Shown one piece after another: positions 2,179 to 19,447 of a stretch of DNA of 24,000 nucleotides. The notes under the pieces are model-generated. The model saw only the letters and a program-made list of their open reading frames with translations. It was not told where the DNA came from and searched no databases. The stretch is from Candidatus Scatosoma sp. Lineage in GTDB: Bacteria > Bacillota > Clostridia > Christensenellales > Borkfalkiaceae. How positions within the stretch are numbered: position 1 is the stretch's first letter; every line of letters begins with the position of its first letter. Where the stretch lies: NCBI GenBank assembly GCA_045643825.1, contig JAZRFV010000084.1, positions 47,946 to 71,945 on the forward strand. The letters run 5' to 3'. The position numbers and the translations under genes are program-made.

Positions 2179-2910
2179 ATGAAAAATAGAAATTTAGGGC
2201 AGTCTATACGCTTAAAATTAGCAACGAATATCGTTTTAGGTGTGCTGATTTTGTCGATTGGGGCGTTATGCCTTTCGCCTATACAAGAAAGTGTTTCCAC
2301 AAAATCCGACAATGCAAATATTTATCGTTGCGTCGAAGAAGAACCGAAAGGTGTTTCCTTAATGTTCAACGTGTATTGGGGTACGGATGAGGTGTATCGC
2401 ATTTTAACGATTTTGTCGGAGTATGACGCACGTGCCACCTTTTTTATCGGTGGGTGTTGGGCGGATGATAACGTAGACTGCTTGAAGGCAATTTATGACG
2501 CAGGGCACGAAATTGGAAACCACGGTTATTTCCATAAAGACCATTCAAAATTTAATTTTGAGGAAAATCAAAAGGAAATTAATGCGTGCAATCAATTTAT
2601 CCAACGTGCAATAGGGGTAAAACCTGTTCTATTTGCACCGCCATCGGGTGCATATAATGACGATATGGTGGCGGCGGCTACTTCGCTTGGATTATCCACA
2701 GTGCTTTGGTCGAAGGATACCATTGATTGGCGGGATAAAAATACGGCGCTTATTTACAGTCGAGCAACGAACAACGTGAAGAGTGGAGATTTTATTTTAA
2801 TGCATCCCATGAAAGAAACGGCGGATGCCTTGCGTGATATTCTGAAATTTTATCAAAATCATGGTTTGAAATCGGTAACGGTTTCGCAAAATTTACAAAA
2901 AGAAGGTTAA
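2179..2910 (+). CDS. Polysaccharide deacetylase (NodB homology domain, PdaB-like) with an N-terminal membrane anchor.
   Basis: An N-terminal hydrophobic segment (ATNIVLGVLILSIGALCL) is present. NodB-like motifs are FNVYWGTDEV, ATFFIGG, HEIGNHGYFH, LFAPPSG and ILMH. The start ATG has an upstream AGGA. Confidence 0.8.
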   Translation: MKNRNLGQSIRLKLATNIVLGVLILSIGALCLSPIQESVSTKSDNANIYRCVEEEPKGVSLMFNVYWGTDEVYRILTILSEYDARATFFIGGCWADDNVDCLKAIYDAGHEIGNHGYFHKDHSKFNFEENQKEINACNQFIQRAIGVKPVLFAPPSGAYNDDMVAAATSLGLSTVLWSKDTIDWRDKNTALIYSRATNNVKSGDFILMHPMKETADALRDILKFYQNHGLKSVTVSQNLQKEG

Positions 2911-2912
2911 AA

Positions 2913-4151
2913 ATGATATACGAGAAAAAATATGAAAATGGCTTGCGTCTCGTGGTAAAAAAGATGGAAGGCTTGATGTCCGTATCTATGGGTATTTTGG
3001 TCGGTACGGGCGCATCGGTTGAAACGGATGCCGAGGACGGTATTTCGCATTTTATCGAGCATATGCAGTTTAAAGGTACAAAGAAGCGCAACGCGTTTGA
3101 AATTTCGGATGCGTTTGACCGCTTGGGTGCGCAGGTGAACGCTTTTACCGGTCAAGACCTTACCTGCTATTATTCGAAATGTACGGTTGATCATACGGCG
3201 GCTTGCTTTGAATTACTTGCGGATTTATTCTTAAATGCAACCTTCCCTGAAGATGAAATGGTGAGGGAAAAAGGGGTTGTATGCGAAGAAATCTCTATGA
3301 ATGAGGACTCCCCTGAAGATTTGTGCTTGGATTTGTTAGGTACTGCACATTACGGTAAGGAAAACTATGGCCGTAATATTCTCGGCCCTGCAAGCAACGT
3401 AAAAGGTTTTACCGTGGAGGATATCTACCGTTATAAAAAGGCGAGATATTGCCCTGAAAATATCGTAATTTCCTTTGCAGGGAATATTGATGCGCAAACG
3501 GCACAAGCGCTTGTGGAAAGCTATTTTGGAAAGCTTGATAAAGGTGTTTTTGAGGAAAGGAAACAGACAATTGTCAATTGCCACCAAACACTTGTAAAGA
3601 CGAAACCGATTGAGCAAATGCACGTTGCGATTGCATATCCGTCCGTTGCAAGAGGGGATAAAAACGAAAACCTCATAAATGCCGTAAACGCTATTTTAGG
3701 CGGTTCGATGAGTGCAAGATTATTCCAAGAGGTACGTGAAAAACGCGGGCTTGCTTATTCGGTATATTCTTACCTTTCGCTGTTCCGTGAATGCGGTGCT
3801 TTGAAAATTTACGCAGGCGTTAATCCTACTCACGTCTACGAGGCGTACGGCGCAATTTGTGACGTAATCGAAGGGATGAAGAAAAACGGTATTACGGAAG
3901 ACGAGTTTTTGCGTAGCCGTGAGCAGTTGAAATCGGGTATGTTTTTTAGCAATGAAAGTACCAATTCACAAATGCTCCTTTACGGAAAATATATGTTGCA
4001 CTTCAATAAGATTTTTGACTTTGAGGAAAAGCTGAAAGCATTAAACGGAATGCGTCACGAGGAAGCCCAGGCGGTGATTGTCGATATGTTTGATGAAAGC
4101 CGTAAGGCGATTGCGTTGGTTGGCAATACGGATACGCCGTTGGCATTTTAA
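2913..4151 (+). CDS. M16 family (insulinase/pitrilysin-like) zinc peptidase.
   Basis: The inverted zinc motif HxxEH is present in GISHFIEHMQFKGT. The 412-aa two-domain M16 layout is present, with LFQEVREKRGLAYSVYS typical of the M16 C-terminal half. The start lies 2 nt after the upstream stop. Confidence 0.85.
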   Translation: MIYEKKYENGLRLVVKKMEGLMSVSMGILVGTGASVETDAEDGISHFIEHMQFKGTKKRNAFEISDAFDRLGAQVNAFTGQDLTCYYSKCTVDHTAACFELLADLFLNATFPEDEMVREKGVVCEEISMNEDSPEDLCLDLLGTAHYGKENYGRNILGPASNVKGFTVEDIYRYKKARYCPENIVISFAGNIDAQTAQALVESYFGKLDKGVFEERKQTIVNCHQTLVKTKPIEQMHVAIAYPSVARGDKNENLINAVNAILGGSMSARLFQEVREKRGLAYSVYSYLSLFRECGALKIYAGVNPTHVYEAYGAICDVIEGMKKNGITEDEFLRSREQLKSGMFFSNESTNSQMLLYGKYMLHFNKIFDFEEKLKALNGMRHEEAQAVIVDMFDESRKAIALVGNTDTPLAF

Positions 4152-7430: not shown

Positions 7431-8843
7431 ATGAAAAATAAATTCGTCAAATATCTATTATTATTCATTCTTGTGCTTATCCCTTGTGTAATGCAATCCG
7501 CATGCAAAAAAGCAAAAGGGGGTGTAGAGGAGTTTATACCTATCTACAACGAGGCATCAAGTGGGAGCGAGTCGCTTTTGGAGGAAAGTTCCGAAAGTGA
7601 GGCTGTAGAAAGTTCTTCGCAAACCAACGAGGAGGAAAGCTCTTCTGCGAGTGAGCGTGTTGAGCCTGAAACCTCGTATGAGGAAGATGAGGTTGAGGAA
7701 GAACCTACGGGTTGTACAACGCATAGTATGGTAATATCTTCCGTGGACGCTGATTGTATCACAGACGGGTTCTACAAAAAATGGTGCGAAAACTGCGATT
7801 TTGTGGAAGAATTCTATACAATCAACGCCATTGGGCATATCGGCACGGAGGCTGCTGAGATTTCGCCTACTTGTCAGGAAGACGGGTATAGCTCCTACAT
7901 ATATTGTATAACATGCGAAGAGATATTGGAGGAGGGTGCTATTCTTCCGATGATAGATCACGACTATGTAACGGGTTTTGGTGCTTGTATTTGGTGTGAT
8001 GCGGTTCAATTAAGTTACGAGGTTGTGGAGGGCGAGCGTTGCTACGCCGTATGTGTAGGACCTGTTCCCCGAAATCCGAAACCGTTGGCTCGTTTTGTAC
8101 ATATTCCCGACACCGTTACTGTTATTGCCAAGGATTCTACGGGGCAGGACAAGTTGTACGAAAATATTCCCGTTGTAAAAATTGCAACCAATGCATTTGC
8201 CAAGGCGTACGATCTAAATAAGCTCATTATTGGTAAAAACGTTGAGGAAATCGGGGTAGGCGCATTTATCCATTGCTTTAATTTGCGTGAAGTATATGAT
8301 AAATCTCAATTAAAGATTGGGCTGCAAGGTAGGGAAGAAAATGGCTGCATTACTGATAACGTAAAGCAAGAGGATATCCATTATACGGATGATTTTGTTA
8401 GTAAAATCAGCGAAGATAAGGCGAGTGGGTGTTTCTTATATACGGACGAGGATATGGTAGAGCTTATCGGTATCCGTGATATTATGGAGGATGTCGTGAT
8501 TCCCGAGGGCGTTACACACATGTCGAATGCCATTTTTGTGATGGCGCACCGAATTACTACATTGACGATTGCCACAACGGTAAAATATATCGCTCCGCTT
8601 GCATTTGGCCTTCCTTGTGACCAGCATAGGGCGCCTAATCATACGAAAAAGGATTGCTCTTTCTTCTTGGAAAAGATTACGTTCCTTAATCCATACGGCT
8701 GGAGTGCATACGAGGAAATCGGCGGGGCACTGATTTATAACTTTACGGCAATGGAATTGAGTGATAATCCCGAAGGTACTTGCTTGAATTTAGCTTGGGA
8801 ATATATGCGTATGAACGCGCATTGGATTCGGACGGACAATTAA
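7431..8843 (+). CDS. Secreted or possibly lipid-anchored surface protein. It has an acidic Ser/Glu-rich linker, Cys-rich CxxC modules and a BspA-type leucine-rich-repeat region.
   Basis: The start is moved to ATG 7431 (RBS AGAGGA) because 7377-7430 covers the acpP terminator. The signal peptide is MKNKFVKYLLLFILVLIPCVMQSAC, and its lipobox is atypical. The linker begins SSGSESLLEESSESEAVESSSQTNEEESSSASE. The Cys modules are CITDGFYKKWCENCDF and TCQEDGYSSYIYCITCEE. LRR-like segments include IATNAFAKAYDLNKLIIGKNVEEIGVGAFIHCFNLREV. Confidence 0.7.
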   Translation: MKNKFVKYLLLFILVLIPCVMQSACKKAKGGVEEFIPIYNEASSGSESLLEESSESEAVESSSQTNEEESSSASERVEPETSYEEDEVEEEPTGCTTHSMVISSVDADCITDGFYKKWCENCDFVEEFYTINAIGHIGTEAAEISPTCQEDGYSSYIYCITCEEILEEGAILPMIDHDYVTGFGACIWCDAVQLSYEVVEGERCYAVCVGPVPRNPKPLARFVHIPDTVTVIAKDSTGQDKLYENIPVVKIATNAFAKAYDLNKLIIGKNVEEIGVGAFIHCFNLREVYDKSQLKIGLQGREENGCITDNVKQEDIHYTDDFVSKISEDKASGCFLYTDEDMVELIGIRDIMEDVVIPEGVTHMSNAIFVMAHRITTLTIATTVKYIAPLAFGLPCDQHRAPNHTKKDCSFFLEKITFLNPYGWSAYEEIGGALIYNFTAMELSDNPEGTCLNLAWEYMRMNAHWIRTDN

Positions 8844-10510: not shown

Positions 10511-10540
10511 AAAAAACCGTATGAACCCATACGGTTTTTT
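10511..10540 (+). terminator. Rho-independent terminator after the ABC-F gene.
   Basis: The hairpin is AAAAAACCGTATG-AACC-CATACGGTTTTTT, followed by ATTTT. Confidence 0.85.
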
Positions 10541-10543
10541 ATT

Positions 10544-10550
10544 TTCGACA
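10544..10550 (-). promoter_or_regulatory. Consensus Spo0A-binding '0A box' (TGTCGAA on the minus strand) upstream of spo0A.
   Basis: TTCGACA on the plus strand is the reverse complement of the B. subtilis 0A-box consensus TGNCGAA. A single 7-mer could occur by chance. Confidence 0.35.
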
Positions 10551-10568
10551 AATTTCGGGACGGATTAT

Positions 10569-10630
10569 CGATTATTTTACAATAATATACGATTATTTTA
10601 AAAATATTTTTGAATATTGTAAAATAATCG
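10569..10630. promoter_or_regulatory. Three perfect copies of the 11-mer CGATTATTTTA (two direct, one inverted), ending 1 bp before the spo0A -35. This is a candidate operator array.
   Basis: The copies are at 10569-10579 and 10590-10600 (direct, 21 bp apart) and at 10620-10630 (TAAAATAATCG, inverted). Two AATATT palindromes lie between copies 2 and 3. Confidence 0.4.
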
Positions 10631-10631
10631 C

Positions 10632-10660
10632 TTTACAAGTTGCAAATTATGTATTATAAT
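10632..10660 (+). promoter_or_regulatory. Sigma-A-type promoter for spo0A: TTTACA, 17-bp spacer, TATAAT.
   Basis: TTTACA is at 10632-10637 and TATAAT at 10655-10660. The RBS AAGGAGA is at 10690-10696, about 7 nt before ATG 10703. Confidence 0.5.
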
Positions 10661-10702
10661 AGGGCTACCATATGGAAAAAACTTAACACAAGGAGAACTA
10701 TT

Positions 10703-11461
10703 ATGAGAACAAACACAGTTATTTTACTTGAATCGAATATGGCGGTATTATCGCAATTAAGGGATGCATTGAGCGAGGATCGAAACTTTAACGTTGTATA
10801 TGCAGGCGACGATGGCGATGAAGGAATCAAACAAATTCTTTCCTTGAAACCTGATTTGGTGATTGTAGGCATGATATTAAAGGGTACGGACGGCTGTGGT
10901 GTAATCCGTATGGTGAAAAAGACGTGGGCGAATGCTAAAATTATCGCTATGGGTATCCCCAACGATGCATTGGTGGAACGGGCGATGTCGGAAGGCGCAG
11001 CTTATTATCTTGGAAAACCGTTTTCCGTTTCTACGGCGATGGAACGTATCCAAGAGCTGATGAAGGATAAGCCCTCTAACGGAAAGGATACGGCGGTAAA
11101 GCGTAAGCCTATCACGATAGAGGAAAAGATAAGTGAAATTTTCATTGCAATCGGTATTCCTCCGCATATTAAAGGCTATGGTTATTTAAGGGAAGGTATT
11201 AAGGCGACGATTGAGCGCCCGTATATCATAAACAGTGTTACGAAAGAATTGTATCCGTCTATCGCAAAGAAATTTAGCACAACGCCGAGTAAGGTAGAAA
11301 GGGCGATTCGGCACGCAATCGAGGTTGCGTGGAATAGAGGTCGTATCGATGCAATTAACGCTATTTTTGGGGCAAGGATTTATCTTGGCGTGGAAAAGCC
11401 GACTAATAGCGAATTTATCGCCCTTGTTGCGGATAAACTTATTCTTGAAAATATGGTATAA
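10703..11461 (+). CDS. spo0A: Spo0A-family sporulation master regulator (receiver domain plus Spo0A-specific DNA-binding domain). The receiver is atypical and lacks the phospho-acceptor Asp.
   Basis: The C-terminal domain carries Spo0A hallmark strings: IGIPPHIKGYGYLREGI, LYPSIAKKFSTTPSKVERAIRHAIEVAW and KPTNSEFIALVADKL. The start is set at ATG 10703 behind AAGGAGA. The tracked 10640 start would lie inside the promoter. Confidence 0.85.
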   Translation: MRTNTVILLESNMAVLSQLRDALSEDRNFNVVYAGDDGDEGIKQILSLKPDLVIVGMILKGTDGCGVIRMVKKTWANAKIIAMGIPNDALVERAMSEGAAYYLGKPFSVSTAMERIQELMKDKPSNGKDTAVKRKPITIEEKISEIFIAIGIPPHIKGYGYLREGIKATIERPYIINSVTKELYPSIAKKFSTTPSKVERAIRHAIEVAWNRGRIDAINAIFGARIYLGVEKPTNSEFIALVADKLILENMV

Positions 11462-11466
11462 AAATA

Positions 11467-11494
11467 AAAGGACAGCTTTAAAAAGCTGTCCTTT
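11467..11494. terminator. Bidirectional rho-independent terminator between the convergent spo0A and groEL genes.
   Basis: The hairpin is AAAGGACAGC-TTTAAAAA-GCTGTCCTTT, with A-runs upstream and T-runs downstream. Confidence 0.8.
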
Positions 11495-11515: not shown

Positions 11516-13448
<1,933 letters not shown>

Positions 13449-16294: not shown

Positions 16295-17032
16295 ATGATA
16301 TACGAAATTGCAGGGCTTCGCGTTAAAATTGAAAATCAGTACGATTTCACCACGAAGTTTTGCCACGAATATCTTTCAGAGGATCAAACCTCGCCCGTGG
16401 ATATCGTTGCAAAGGTTACGGCGGAGGAATTTGCGGCCGAAAGAGCCACCTCTGAAGCGTTTTCGGATGGATATATTGAAAATATATGCCTGTATCGTAG
16501 CTTGTGTAATCAAATCCCCGTGTTGGGGCGGATGTTGTTACATTGCGCCGTGTTAGAATATGATGGAAAGGGTTACGCCTTTTTAGGCCGTAGTGGGACA
16601 GGGAAATCCACACATACCCGCCTTTGGAAAAAGTATTTGGGCACCCCGAGGATGATTAACGGTGATAAGCCGATTTTACAATTCATCGGGGAAGGCTTTC
16701 TTGCCCATGGAACTCCTTGGCGAGGTAAAGAGTCGTGGGGGATTCGTTCGTTTGCACCCCTTTGTGGACTTTGCTTTTTAGAACAGGCGAAGGAAAACTC
16801 TATACGAAGGTTAACGTCTTCCGAGGTTTCTGCTCGTTTGTTTGGGCAAATTCTTTTACCGGAAGAGGAAGAAAACGTTGTTTCCACGTTAGAGCTTGCG
16901 GATAAATTGATTGCAACAACTCCTGCATATTTATTGAAGTGCGACATTTCAAAAGAAGCTGTAAAGCTGTCGTTCGAGCAATTGACAGGCTTGTCGTTTG
17001 AAGAAAGGGAACAATCCCTTGAAGAGGTATAG
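16295..17032 (+). CDS. HPr kinase/phosphorylase C-terminal-domain-like P-loop protein (HprK-related kinase of peptide-modification clusters).
   Basis: The P-loop context HCAVLEYDGKGYAFLGRSGTGKSTHTRLW parallels the HprK H-G-x-L-x(n)-G-x-SG-x-GKS motif. The N-terminal Y-x-x-x-GL-x-V-x-I-E pattern is typical of HprK-related kinases. It is adjacent to a PqqD-family gene. Confidence 0.6.
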   Translation: MIYEIAGLRVKIENQYDFTTKFCHEYLSEDQTSPVDIVAKVTAEEFAAERATSEAFSDGYIENICLYRSLCNQIPVLGRMLLHCAVLEYDGKGYAFLGRSGTGKSTHTRLWKKYLGTPRMINGDKPILQFIGEGFLAHGTPWRGKESWGIRSFAPLCGLCFLEQAKENSIRRLTSSEVSARLFGQILLPEEEENVVSTLELADKLIATTPAYLLKCDISKEAVKLSFEQLTGLSFEEREQSLEEV

Positions 17033-17034
17033 AT

Positions 17035-17298
17035 ATGAAGATTAAAAAAGGCTTTGTTCTCCGTGTGGTTGGTGGCGAAAACGTCGTTGTGCCCGTTGGC
17101 GCAATGAGTAAAACCTTCCATGGTATGATTAATCTCAATGAAACGGGGGCTTTTATGTGGAAGTTTTTCTCCGAGGAGCATACCTTGGAAGAAGGTGTTG
17201 CCGCATTGCTGTCGGAATATGAGGTGGAAGAGGATCGTGCTCGCGCTGACGTTCAAAAATTCATGGATGCAATCATGGGGAACGGTTTTGCTGAATAA
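17035..17298 (+). CDS. PqqD family protein (RiPP recognition element / peptide chaperone).
   Basis: It is 87 aa. The pattern VVVPVGAMSKTFHGMINLNETGAFMWKFFSEEHTLEE...VEEDRARADVQKFMDAIMGNGF matches the beta-strands plus winged-helix layout of PqqD/RRE proteins. The call is made by recognition only. Confidence 0.7.
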   Translation: MKIKKGFVLRVVGGENVVVPVGAMSKTFHGMINLNETGAFMWKFFSEEHTLEEGVAALLSEYEVEEDRARADVQKFMDAIMGNGFAE

Positions 17299-17768
17299 TG
17301 GAACAAATTGAAAAGCAAACAATTGAAGAGGTATTGTTATCACACGGAAAATATGTCGGACCTACGGTTGGTGTCAGTATGCTACCGATGTTGAAAAATC
17401 GTCGCGATACCATTGTTGTGTTGGCAAAAACGGAGCGATTGAAGCGCCTGGATGTAGCATTATATCGCCGTGGAGATGCCTATATTTTACACCGTGTATT
17501 GCAACCGATTGAAGGTGGATATATCATTCGAGGTGATAATTGCTACTCCGACGAGAAGGTGCCTGAAAACGCCGTTATCGGCGTTTTATCAGAATTTTTC
17601 CGCAAGGGAAAGCATTTCTACTGTACGGATAAAAAGTACCTTAAATACGCGGAAAAACGCTTAAAAACCTATAAAGTAAGACGTTTTTTTGTCTTGTTAA
17701 AGGCGAGATGTAGGAACGGTGCAAAGCGTGTCCTTTACGCGTTTGGTTTAAGAAAGAAGAGAAAATAA
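17298..17768 (+). CDS. S24/S26-family serine peptidase with an S26B (SipW/Sec11-like) Ser/His motif pattern and no N-terminal membrane anchor.
   Basis: The motifs are GVSMLPML (nucleophile Ser box), YILHRVL (HR[IV] box in place of the bacterial KR[IV]) and IIRGDNCYSDEKV (GDN box). The N-terminus is hydrophilic and the C-terminus is a basic tail. The start ATG overlaps the PqqD stop (TAATG). Confidence 0.6.
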   Translation: MEQIEKQTIEEVLLSHGKYVGPTVGVSMLPMLKNRRDTIVVLAKTERLKRLDVALYRRGDAYILHRVLQPIEGGYIIRGDNCYSDEKVPENAVIGVLSEFFRKGKHFYCTDKKYLKYAEKRLKTYKVRRFFVLLKARCRNGAKRVLYAFGLRKKRK

Positions 17769-17770
17769 CG

Positions 17771-19447
17771 ATGAAAACAAAAGCAAATAACAAAGGAAAA
17801 ATTTGGTTAAAAAAAGAGACGAGACCTTACCGCTCGTCTATCCTTTTTTTGACGAGTCTTGCCGTCTTTACGACGGTATTTTCCATTTTATTTGCGTACA
17901 TGGTGCGTTATCTCATTAATAGCGCATCGAATAAAGAAACGGAAAAACTGTGGCTTTTTGCTGGTTTACTTTTAGGATTTTTGCTTTTAAAAATTGTCTT
18001 GAAGGTAATGCGTGGCTATTTCTCGGAAAAGGCAAATGCAAAGATGACTGCAGGGCTTCGTACTCGTTTATATGGTAAAATATTGCGCTCTGATTACGCG
18101 GCAGTACAGCAATATCACAGCGGAGACTTAATCACTCGTTTAACCACCGACATTAATGAGGTTTCTGCGTATTCTGTTTCCTTATTACCTGCGGTTGTGG
18201 CTATGGCAATGCAATGCGTTGGATCTATTGTGGCTCTTTTGACGATTGATCCGTTATTTACCGCTATTTATGTGTTCGCAGGGGTAATATTTGCCGCTAT
18301 CACGATGTTTTTTAGAAAGCAATTGAAAAAGCATCATAAAGAGGTGATGTCGGCGGATGCGGAATCCCGTTCGTATATGCAGGAAAGTATTTCCTCACTT
18401 TTGACCGTAAAGGCTTATGGGGTTGAGGGGAAGAGCACGGATAAAGCGGAGGACTTCGCACAAAGCTATTATCAAAAGCGTATGAAACGCAACGGCTTGC
18501 GCGCAGGGATGAATGCAATTTTCTCGCTTTTGAGTAATTTTGGCTTAATTTTTGCCGTTGTATGGTGCAGTGTAAGTATATTGTACGGTAGAACGACTGA
18601 CTACGGTTCGATTTTGTCGGCAATTCTACTATTGATGCAGTTGCAATCGCCTCTTTCTTCATTCTCGACGATACCACCTGCGTACTATGCTCGCATAGCG
18701 AGTGGCGAGCGTTTGGCTGAAATTGAAGATATCACCGTAGAAATAACGGAAGAAGAAGGTGACGGACAGACAATTTACGAAAACCTTGCGAATATTTCCT
18801 TTAAAAACCTTGCGTTTACGTATGGTCGAGAGGAAATTTTAAGCGATATGTCGGCGCAAATTAATAAAGGTGAAATCGTTTGCTTAACGGGGCCGTCGGG
18901 CGCAGGGAAAAGCACAATATTCAAACTTTTACTGCAAGTGTATCAACCGACGTCGGGGAGTATGGTTTTGCAGATGCAAGAAGGTGAAAGCCCTTTAACA
19001 GCAAAAGAAAGAGATTTGTTTGCTTATGTCCCGCAGGGGAATTTCCTTTTCTCGGGTACAATTTATGAAAATCTTGCATTTTTCTCAAAAGAGACAAATT
19101 TGGAAGTATTAAAGGAAAAAATGCTCTCTTGCATAAAGACGGCTTGTGCAGAATTTGTTTTTGAGCTCCCTCAAGGTCTTGACACTGTTTTATCGGAAGG
19201 TGGCGCAGGTTTGTCGGAAGGGCAATTACAACGCTTGGCTGTGGCAAGGGCATTGCTTTCGGAACGTCCTATTTTGTTGTTAGACGAAGCGACCAGCGCG
19301 TTGGACGCAGATACGGAAAAACGTTTGATTGAAAATATTGCAAATCTCAACAATAAAACCTGCATATTGGTTACCCATCGACCTAAAGCGTTGGAGGTTG
19401 CCGATAAGGTTTTGCATATTGAAAACGGAAAAGTAACACAAAAATAA
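17771..19447 (+). CDS. ABC exporter, fused permease plus ATPase (type I exporter half-transporter).
   Basis: The N-terminal half is hydrophobic with about six transmembrane segments. The NBD has Walker A LTGPSGAGKST, signature LSEGQLQRLAVARAL and Walker B ILLLDEATSALD. There is no C39 peptidase domain. Confidence 0.9.
   Translation: MKTKANNKGKIWLKKETRPYRSSILFLTSLAVFTTVFSILFAYMVRYLINSASNKETEKLWLFAGLLLGFLLLKIVLKVMRGYFSEKANAKMTAGLRTRLYGKILRSDYAAVQQYHSGDLITRLTTDINEVSAYSVSLLPAVVAMAMQCVGSIVALLTIDPLFTAIYVFAGVIFAAITMFFRKQLKKHHKEVMSADAESRSYMQESISSLLTVKAYGVEGKSTDKAEDFAQSYYQKRMKRNGLRAGMNAIFSLLSNFGLIFAVVWCSVSILYGRTTDYGSILSAILLLMQLQSPLSSFSTIPPAYYARIASGERLAEIEDITVEITEEEGDGQTIYENLANISFKNLAFTYGREEILSDMSAQINKGEIVCLTGPSGAGKSTIFKLLLQVYQPTSGSMVLQMQEGESPLTAKERDLFAYVPQGNFLFSGTIYENLAFFSKETNLEVLKEKMLSCIKTACAEFVFELPQGLDTVLSEGGAGLSEGQLQRLAVARALLSERPILLLDEATSALDADTEKRLIENIANLNNKTCILVTHRPKALEVADKVLHIENGKVTQK

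Follow-up and report, generated by a model that had tools for sequence, protein, structure and literature searches.

A Spo0A family protein with a conserved pseudo-receiver domain in Candidatus Scatosoma and related gut Clostridia

Spo0A is the textbook developmental master switch, driven by phosphorylation of an aspartate in its receiver domain. We analyzed a 24,000-nucleotide stretch of a Candidatus Scatosoma sp. genome (GenBank assembly GCA_045643825.1, contig JAZRFV010000084.1, positions 47,946 to 71,945 of the forward strand; the whole stretch is called the window below), whose spo0A gene encodes a protein with a receiver domain that lacks the phospho-acceptor. This receiver is a pseudo-receiver that is still folded and under purifying selection, and its loss of the phosphorylation site is fixed. 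The remodeled Spo0A is shared with at least 79 related species plus further relatives. The reading we favor, with a probability of roughly 0.6, is that an orthologous Spo0A has turned into a pseudo-receiver regulator that would work without phosphorylation.

Three features assign the protein to the Spo0A family: its output domain, its full-length score against a hidden Markov model (HMM), and the Spo0A-binding sites (0A boxes) upstream of its gene. It clears the cutoff of the NCBIfam equivalog model for Spo0A, TIGR02875, by a modest margin (221.4 bits against 200, residues 6 to 251), and Pfam recognizes both a Response_reg domain (PF00072, residues 6 to 116, 48.5 bits, cutoff 30.2) and a Spo0A_C domain (PF08769, residues 143 to 246, 133 bits). 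In phmmer searches the C-terminal domain matches structures 1lq1 (E = 6e-37) and 1fc3 (E = 2e-36), with an identical recognition helix, VERAIRHAIEVAW, and Foldseek superposes this half on the same two structures at a root mean square deviation (rmsd) of 0.9 to 1.3 Å and 56 to 58% identity. Judged by its sequence, the DNA-binding domain is fully canonical. The N-terminal half superposes on the Spo0A receivers 5wq0 and 1qmp at an rmsd of ~1.5 Å with just 18 to 21% identity, and many receiver structures match it at 1.3 to 1.8 Å; FrzS receivers occur among both its sequence and its fold matches. AlphaFold2, run with a 57-sequence alignment, gives a model with a mean predicted local distance difference test (pLDDT) score of 90 and a clean (beta-alpha)5 receiver, where the score is 92 to 98. 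Compared with Bacillus subtilis Spo0A, the receiver is 19% identical, against a mean of 38% for homologues of the same sample with canonical pockets; the corresponding values for the C-terminal domain are 57% and 58%. By this measure the receiver has diverged about twice as far as that of canonical homologues, and the output domain has not.

Within the receiver, the five pocket positions (canonical D10/D11/D56/T86/K108) read Glu10, Ser11, Gly56, Met83, and Lys105, leaving the Lys as the sole member of the catalytic quintet Asp-Asp/Asp/Thr-Ser/Lys. Pockets are written below by the residues at positions 10, 11, and 56, D-D-D being the canonical state. Three independent alignments, gap-free around the key sites, place Gly56 on the acceptor Asp. 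phmmer alignments with CheY (6er7) and VraR (5hev) pair dlvivGmilkgtdg with dlvtmDivmpemdg, and a MAFFT alignment with B. subtilis Spo0A agrees on the position of Gly56. An HMM of 38 canonical D-D-D Spo0A sequences aligns vlivDDnkel with VILLESNMAV and pdvvilDiimpklDG with PDLVIVGMILKGTDG, both with maximal posterior probability. In the AlphaFold model, strand beta-3 spans residues 52 to 56, with Gly56 as its C-terminal residue.

These results bear on an initial annotation of the locus, which had described the protein as a Spo0A that has lost the acidic pair, the acceptor Asp, and the conserved Thr and has retained the Lys. The assignment to Spo0A agrees with the equivalog score and the fold matches to 1fc3 and 1lq1. 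Direct reading of the sequence returns the same codons, GAA at 10, TCG at 11, GGC at 56, and AAA at 105 (11015-11017), and the loss of the acidic pair and the acceptor holds under the 38-sequence profile, which finds no Asp at the end of beta-3. The conserved Thr is indeed absent from the window protein, but the residue had been misplaced by one: it is Met83, the equivalent of B. subtilis Thr86, rather than Gly84, and most relatives keep a Thr there. A receiver that is recognized by its profile and lacks the acceptor Asp falls under the definition of a pseudo-receiver, or aspartate-less receiver. Given the Glu-Ser pair, the lost acceptor, and a Lys-Gly loop in place of Pro-His, Asp phosphorylation at the canonical site, whether through a phosphorelay or by an orphan kinase, is therefore not expected. 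Because that site is lost, the textbook "on" switch of Spo0A, as far as the residues tell, cannot operate as described in Scatosoma, and the protein would fail the mechanistic hallmark of its family, activation at Asp56.

How far does this state extend among relatives? Two sets were compared: the 120 nearest protein clusters (79 to 100% identity to the window protein) and a one-genome-per-species scan that yielded 80 distinct genomes (60 to 90% identity). Counts by position refer, unless stated otherwise, to an alignment of the 79 full-length orthologues of the genus, and counts for upstream regions refer to 76 loci. The 80 genomes, from deer, sheep, goat, chicken, and human gut, are mostly labeled Candidatus Scatosoma or unclassified Clostridia metagenome-assembled genomes (MAGs). 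NCBI lists Candidatus Scatosoma under Clostridia incertae sedis; a Catabacter label on one related MAG suggests a place in Christensenellales. Among the 120 clusters, position 56 is Gly in 86 and Ser in 34, position 11 is Ser or Ala, Glu10 is found in 119, and the conserved Lys is present in all. Of the 80 genomes, four encode Asp56 (L044, L047, L052, and L062); the other 76 have Gly, Ser, Asn, or Ala there. The genus alignment has Gly 50, Ser 23, Asp 3, Asn 2, and Ala 1 at this position, Glu10 in 75/79, Ser11 in 67/79, and Lys105 in 78/79, with Pro106 and Phe107 in all 79. The loop pair is also nearly invariant (Lys60 in 74/79, Gly61 in 78/79). Position 83 is Thr in 52 sequences and Met in 14, ACG to ATG being a single step.

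Gly or Ser at position 56 thus holds across the lineage, and a GAC codon 56 together with a D-D pocket was not seen among the orthologues. Errors in sequencing or assembling MAGs as the source of the substitutions can be practically dismissed. The window does hold one probable error, an in-frame TAA in groEL, but 120 independent protein clusters share the same pocket residues, as do 80 genomes that come from many hosts and were obtained in many studies. This recurrence refutes the artifact explanation, as the initial annotation had anticipated, and synonymous codon turnover (see below) tells the same way. Chance and error are excluded because the substitutions recur in every relative examined.

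All 79 full-length orthologous open reading frames (ORFs) are free of internal stops. The receiver has a ratio of nonsynonymous to synonymous substitution (dN/dS, Nei-Gojobori, 92 pairs) of ~0.16 and the DNA-binding domain one of 0.04; the value is highest, 0.36, in the linker, which is also the segment of highest entropy. At Gly56 all four Gly codons are in use, with the Ser, Asn, Asp, and Ala variants each one nucleotide step away, and Ser11 is encoded by both the TCN and the AGY codon families; such turnover means that both residues have long been maintained. The lowest entropy in the receiver falls in five loops, Leu9-Glu10-Ser11-Asn12, Gly35-Asp36-Asp37-Gly38-Asp39, Phe58-Leu59-Lys60-Gly61-x-Asp63-Gly64, Ala82-Thr83-Gly84, and Tyr101-Tyr102-Leu-Val-Lys105-Pro106-Phe107. 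The former active-site loops are its most conserved part, and position 56 itself is comparatively free. Since these loops are the least variable, the pocket has been rebuilt as a new constrained surface and not abandoned.

In most of the 80 loci the gene order is mutS2, polysaccharide deacetylase, M16 peptidase, (DNA-alkylation repair), tex, abcF, spo0A, groEL/ES, dCMP deaminase, peptidyl-prolyl isomerase, and purB. In some species spo0A-polA-coaE-glgBCDA replaces the groEL/ES side; the order spo0A-polA-coaE-glg recurs in a sister lineage with an E-S-N pocket, and spo0A-polA-coaE in one with an E-R-D pocket. Both sister lineages keep the adjacency of abcF and spo0A. In Bacilli and Clostridia spo0A typically lies downstream of spoIVB, but here an ABC-F ATPase gene is upstream and groEL/ES downstream. 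A neighbor-joining tree branches in the order D-D-D, then E-S-D, then E-R-D/E-S-N, then (D/E)-S-G. This pattern suggests that the pocket degenerated gradually in one positional orthologue, the acidic pair being lost before the acceptor Asp, and the best explanation for the Scatosoma gene appears to be a vertically inherited Spo0A orthologue.

The E-R-D lineage (L081-L083 and L087-L090; proteins P0295, P0135, and P0373) is very common in the human gut, its proteins being indexed in 375 to 443 blocks of the sequence collection. Its Spo0A has Glu-Arg or Glu-His for the Asp-Asp pair and keeps Asp56, and its gene adjoins abcF. Among the top 120 matches listed for P0295, which reach down to 61% identity, none is from Scatosoma. 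In a wider sample, the 117 full-length 50%-identity representatives nearest to the query, just 37 have the D-D-D pocket and 26 lack Asp56, the sample being skewed towards the query and possibly containing paralogues. Uncultured gut Clostridia may commonly carry pseudo-receiver forms of Spo0A. The closest canonical D-D-D representative is P0321, the gene context of which is uninformative.

A different history is that the Asp-less copy is a paralogue and that a canonical, phosphorylatable spo0A lies elsewhere in the genome. In that case the Asp-less protein, blind to phosphorylation, would compete for 0A boxes or co-regulate from them. Two or three spo0A paralogues were found in 11 of 118 Spo0A-positive genomes (Galperin et al. 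2022, bioRxiv 10.1101/2022.02.25.481979), the usual upstream neighbor spoIVB is absent from this locus, and some of the many noncanonical pockets among the 117 representatives could belong to paralogues. However, each of the 80 genomes gives exactly one locus of this type, in a stable housekeeping neighborhood common to sister lineages with intermediate pockets, which fits one orthologous line; the protein clears the Spo0A equivalog cutoff; and the same survey found a single spo0A in 107 of the 118 genomes. We consider a paralogue unlikely.

The promoter region of spo0A is conserved as well. The gene is monocistronic, with its own promoter and a terminator on either side (Table 1), and both the -35 and the -10 elements are conserved genus-wide in the alignment of upstream regions. 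The sporulation promoter of B. subtilis spo0A depends on sigma-H, whereas that of Scatosoma looks like a sigma-A promoter. In 67 of the 76 orthologous loci, the 260 nucleotides upstream of the start codon include a perfect 0A box, in most cases between -180 and -130; a pair of perfect boxes with a spacing of exactly 10 bp occurs in many species. The genus consensus of this tandem region is TTTCGACAAAATTCGACA, with >90% conservation in the columns of the boxes against 30 to 60% in the flanks. The window holds three perfect 0A boxes, which equals the background level (0.19 per kb); those at 8521 and 13424 are inside coding sequences (the latter in groES), and only the one upstream of spo0A is meaningful. 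Among three sister promoter types examined, a 0A box is present in those of the E-R-D (L081, L083) and E-S-N (L084-L086) lineages and absent from the region upstream of the P0373 gene (L087, L089). The boxes upstream of spo0A point to an autoregulation of the gene, as predicted from sequence, and because they are conserved and the recognition helix is identical to that of canonical Spo0A, they indicate that the Scatosoma protein, or some Spo0A in the cell, probably binds this promoter. Between the boxes and the -35 element lie copies of an AT-rich 15-mer, ATATTGTAAAATAAT, which with up to 2 mismatches is found in 63 of the 76 upstream regions (L001-L080), at 1 to 4 copies per promoter in direct or inverted orientation and with conserved alignment columns. 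The repeat might serve another regulator as operator, or it might be an UP-like element. Sister lineages carry similar ATTATTTTACAAAAATA elements.

Descriptions of cultured Christensenella species give them as non-spore-forming, and an inability to sporulate is predicted for most, though not all, MAGs of Christensenellales. No sporulation gene was found in the 24-kb window or in the ~20-kb neighborhoods read in relatives, including the divergent contexts L076 and L079 and the alternative downstream regions of L046, L049, and L051. In the E-R-D lineage, a spoIIIAA-AD operon lies 9 to 10 kb downstream of spo0A (L083, 19293-20771), so at least this relative keeps sporulation genes. A link between the Scatosoma gene and the control of endospore formation is something we infer. 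Has sporulation been lost here, leaving spo0A as a functionless remnant that drifts toward a pseudogene? The non-sporulating relatives, the lack of sporulation genes in the window, and the twofold divergence of the receiver are in keeping with a relic. It is contradicted by the intact ORFs of 79 species, by the low dN/dS of the receiver and above all of the C-terminal domain, by the conservation of promoter, 0A boxes, and terminators, and by pocket residues that are upheld through synonymous turnover, which makes a relic highly improbable. Conversely, Scatosoma and its sister lineages might still sporulate, with a decision that bypasses Asp phosphorylation of Spo0A, the kinase or phosphorelay checkpoint having given way to transcriptional dosage and autoregulation, or else to a partner or ligand that binds the pocket. 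We regard this proposal as tentative and rather doubtful.

The initial annotation held that regulation must differ from that of canonical Spo0A, and this follows from the chemistry, because the canonical phospho-acceptor chemistry is absent. Different regulation also fits the purifying selection on the receiver, the remodeled and conserved pocket loops, and the upstream 0A boxes. We propose that Scatosoma Spo0A would bind 0A boxes in its unphosphorylated form and feed back on its own transcription, and that its output would be set mainly by its abundance, via the sigma-A promoter and autoregulation. Two kinds of laboratory variants offer precedents. In B. subtilis, Spo0A sad67 and the isolated C-terminal domain have an output uncoupled from Asp phosphorylation, and in CheY a basic residue in the acidic pocket (D13K/R) mimics activation. 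Unlike these mutants, the Scatosoma protein is a natural state fixed genus-wide, with an activity that is predicted. The likeness to CheY D13K/R lies in Arg or His at position 11 of the E-R-D sister lineage, the Arg being presumably a natural counterpart of the activating substitution, and in Lys60 of the Scatosoma pocket loop. These basic pocket residues recall CheY D13K, and we lean slightly toward a fixed, constitutively "active-like" and dimerization-competent receiver, which would be held by a pocket network of Lys60, Glu10, and Asp36-37. Alternatively or additionally, a partner protein or ligand may dock on the remodeled pocket. The output under control would be sporulation or a repurposed regulon.

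Could a covalent switch have moved to another site instead, with a Ser/Thr kinase acting on Ser11 or Thr83, or Asp phosphorylation at Asp36, Asp37, or the secondary Asp56? Ser11, Asp36, Asp37, Thr83, and Lys105 are highly conserved and clustered on the former active-site face, and Lys105, which normally contacts the phosphoryl group, is almost always kept. However, the window protein and 13 other species have Met at position 83, position 56 is free to be Gly, Ser, Asn, Ala, or Asp, and no conserved kinase gene lies beside spo0A in the neighborhoods read. Standard receiver autophosphorylation needs an Asp-Asp Mg site and would be unavailable here. D10A and D11A substitutions also cripple C. difficile Spo0A (bioRxiv 10.1101/2022.02.07.479450). 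Such a relocated switch seems quite improbable.

Several points weigh against a phosphorylation-independent, active Spo0A. We infer from the sequence that the Scatosoma protein binds DNA, dimerizes, and is not phosphorylated. Spo0A of B. subtilis and C. difficile stays largely inactive as long as its receiver is unphosphorylated or carries D56A, and C. difficile mutants with D56A or with changes in the acidic pair are largely inactive and dimerize poorly (bioRxiv 10.1101/2022.02.07.479450). Because of this effect, a nonphosphorylatable receiver could be locked off, not on; the opposite view would then be a locked-off receiver that needs a partner. The 0A boxes upstream of the gene could serve another Spo0A. 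The tree is neighbor-joining only, the dN/dS values come from no more than those 92 pairs because dS was saturated for most pairs, and gene content was read from 24 kb of the source genome and ~20 kb per relative. Four species have Asp56. These still carry Glu10 and Ser11, have Ile83 and Arg60 instead of Lys60, and are nested and derived in the tree; their Asp56 is probably best read as secondary in one nested subclade, co-occurring with the change of Lys60 to Arg.

Canonical Spo0A of B. subtilis, Geobacillus stearothermophilus, and C. difficile (1qmp, 1fc3, 1lq1, and 5wq0) has the same two-domain architecture as the Scatosoma protein, and likewise a receiver fold, a Lys-Pro-Phe motif, and 0A boxes upstream of its own gene. 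It differs in having spoIVB upstream, and in Asp10, Asp11, Asp56, and Pro-His where Scatosoma has Glu, Ser, Gly, and Lys-Gly in a receiver only ~19% identical. The Streptomyces regulators WhiI and BldM are pseudo-receiver proteins, and WhiI is a developmental (sporulation) regulator with a degenerate pocket. Among ChxR, HP1043, GlnR, FrzS, and WhiI/BldM, none has a Spo0A_C output domain. ChxR, HP1043, GlnR, and FrzS share with Scatosoma Spo0A the receiver fold without acceptor Asp or acidic pocket, a state conserved across orthologues. The activity of pseudo-receiver regulators is presumed to be independent of phosphorylation, as we propose here. Regulators of this kind form a known class that includes these four (PMC4395418, PMC12632262), and Glu is the commonest residue at the Asp position of aspartate-less receivers, whereas Scatosoma has Gly or Ser.

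In C. difficile Spo0A, D10A, D11A, D56A, and K108A each lower sporulation (bioRxiv 10.1101/2022.02.07.479450). Spo0A as a natural pseudo-receiver is not listed in the two reviews (PMC4395418, PMC12632262) or their supplements, and no report of a natural Spo0A without the acceptor Asp was found in the searchable literature. In non-spore-forming Firmicutes, Spo0A is kept, vertically inherited, and usually single-copy; the survey that reports this does not mention loss of the phosphorylation site, and it calls only the Macrococcus gene "highly degraded" (Galperin et al. 2022, bioRxiv 10.1101/2022.02.25.481979). In contrast to that gene, Scatosoma spo0A is specifically remodeled, not degraded. The natural variant of a paradigm regulator described here is real, well supported, and apparently unreported.

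Table 1. Features of the spo0A locus and of its product, in window coordinates
Feature	Position	Strand	Basis or remark
Hairpin terminator ending the upstream ABC-F gene and parting it from spo0A	10511..10540	.	Terminator scan; 13-pair stem, then T-run
Perfect Spo0A box TTCGACA (reverse complement of TGTCGAA)	10544..10550	+	159 nt before ATG
Degenerate second 0A box TTCGGGA	10554..10560	+	5/7 matches; exactly 10 bp after the first box
AT-rich 15-mer repeats ATATTGTAAAATAAT	10571..10628	.	Between 0A boxes and -35; one inverted and one direct copy
Sigma-A-type promoter, TTTACA / 17-nt spacer / TATAAT	10632..10660	+	11/12 consensus matches
Ribosome-binding site AAGGAG	10690-10695	+	Direct sequence reading
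spo0A coding sequence	10703..11461	+	252 aa plus stop; ATG 10703, TAA 11459-11461; product identical to P0001
Pseudo-receiver domain, residues 4-121	10712..11065	+	(beta-alpha)5 fold; PF00072; AlphaFold2
Codons 10-11, GAA TCG (Glu-Ser), replacing the Mg-binding Asp-Asp pair	10730..10735	+	Direct reading and profile alignment
Codon 56, GGC (Gly), replacing the phospho-acceptor Asp	10868..10870	+	Direct reading, phmmer, and HMM
Codons 60-61, Lys-Gly, replacing the canonical Pro-His of the MPHLDG loop (beta3-alpha3)	10880..10885	+	Alignment
Codon 83, ATG (Met), at the conserved Thr/Ser position	10949..10951	+	Alignments
Codons 105-107, Lys-Pro-Phe, conserved receiver Lys motif kept	11015..11023	+	Codon 105 = AAA, 11015-11017
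Interdomain linker, residues 122-138, variable	11066..11116	+	pLDDT <50 for residues 124-133
Spo0A_C DNA-binding/trans-activation domain, residues 139-250	11117..11452	+	PF08769, phmmer, and Foldseek
Recognition helix SKVERAIRHAIEVAW	11288-11332	+	Within the Spo0A_C domain
Bidirectional hairpin terminator common to spo0A and convergent groEL	11467..11494	.	12-pair stem on both strands

Some further observations concern spo0A sequences outside the window. Four metagenomic proteins met among the 50%-identity representatives, P0132 (439 aa), P0134 (454 aa), P0137 (394 aa), and P0138 (428 aa), carry 3 to 4 tandem Spo0A_C domains, an unfamiliar architecture, with PF08769 scores of 311 to 399 bits over 3 to 4 stretches and no Pfam receiver match. 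One species (L059) has a 22-residue fragment (7909-7974) that is 95% identical to the Spo0A C terminus, a partial duplicate within a ~4-kb insertion between spo0A and groEL. Two contigs of the same length, 286,039 bp (L011, JAFTVF010000006.1, and L091, ENA scaffold_21), hold different Scatosoma spo0A alleles with 83% protein identity and coordinates 30 kb apart; a coincidence between independent assemblies of two species is likeliest, and a tandem duplication of the block is possible.

Elsewhere in the window, a polysaccharide deacetylase gene is followed by an M16 peptidase gene (2179-4151). The best NCBIfam matches of the deacetylase are the sporulation proteins PdaB and YlxY (177 bits, below the cutoffs); we take the pair to resemble ylxY-mlpA of B. 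subtilis, which alone is no evidence for sporulation. A conserved cassette at 16295-19447 has the look of peptide export, with genes for an ScmC-like protein (TIGR04249/PF27840), an unknown 156-residue protein, and an ABC exporter; a small PqqD-like ORF is seen in relatives, and no radical-SAM gene is evident in the cassette. The groEL gene (11516-13141, minus strand) has its in-frame TAA at codon 58 (12965-12967), which is GAA or GAG in 40 related loci. A one-base mistake in sequencing or assembling the MAG probably accounts for the TAA; otherwise the codon would be a nonsense mutation in an essential gene.

In a whole abundant gut genus, then, the only detectable type of Spo0A lacks the acceptor Asp yet is strongly conserved, which implies that the presence of spo0A is by itself no evidence for sporulation under phosphorelay control. 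The finding would be weightier if the lineage sporulates and less so if a canonical copy coexists. Scatosoma Spo0A adds a new output-domain class to the catalog of pseudo-receiver regulators, and the evolution of its pseudo-receiver can be traced stepwise, from D-D-D to E-S-G, in a single orthologous gene whose synteny is conserved. It offers a natural system for asking how the receiver of Spo0A gates, or ceases to gate, its DNA-binding domain.

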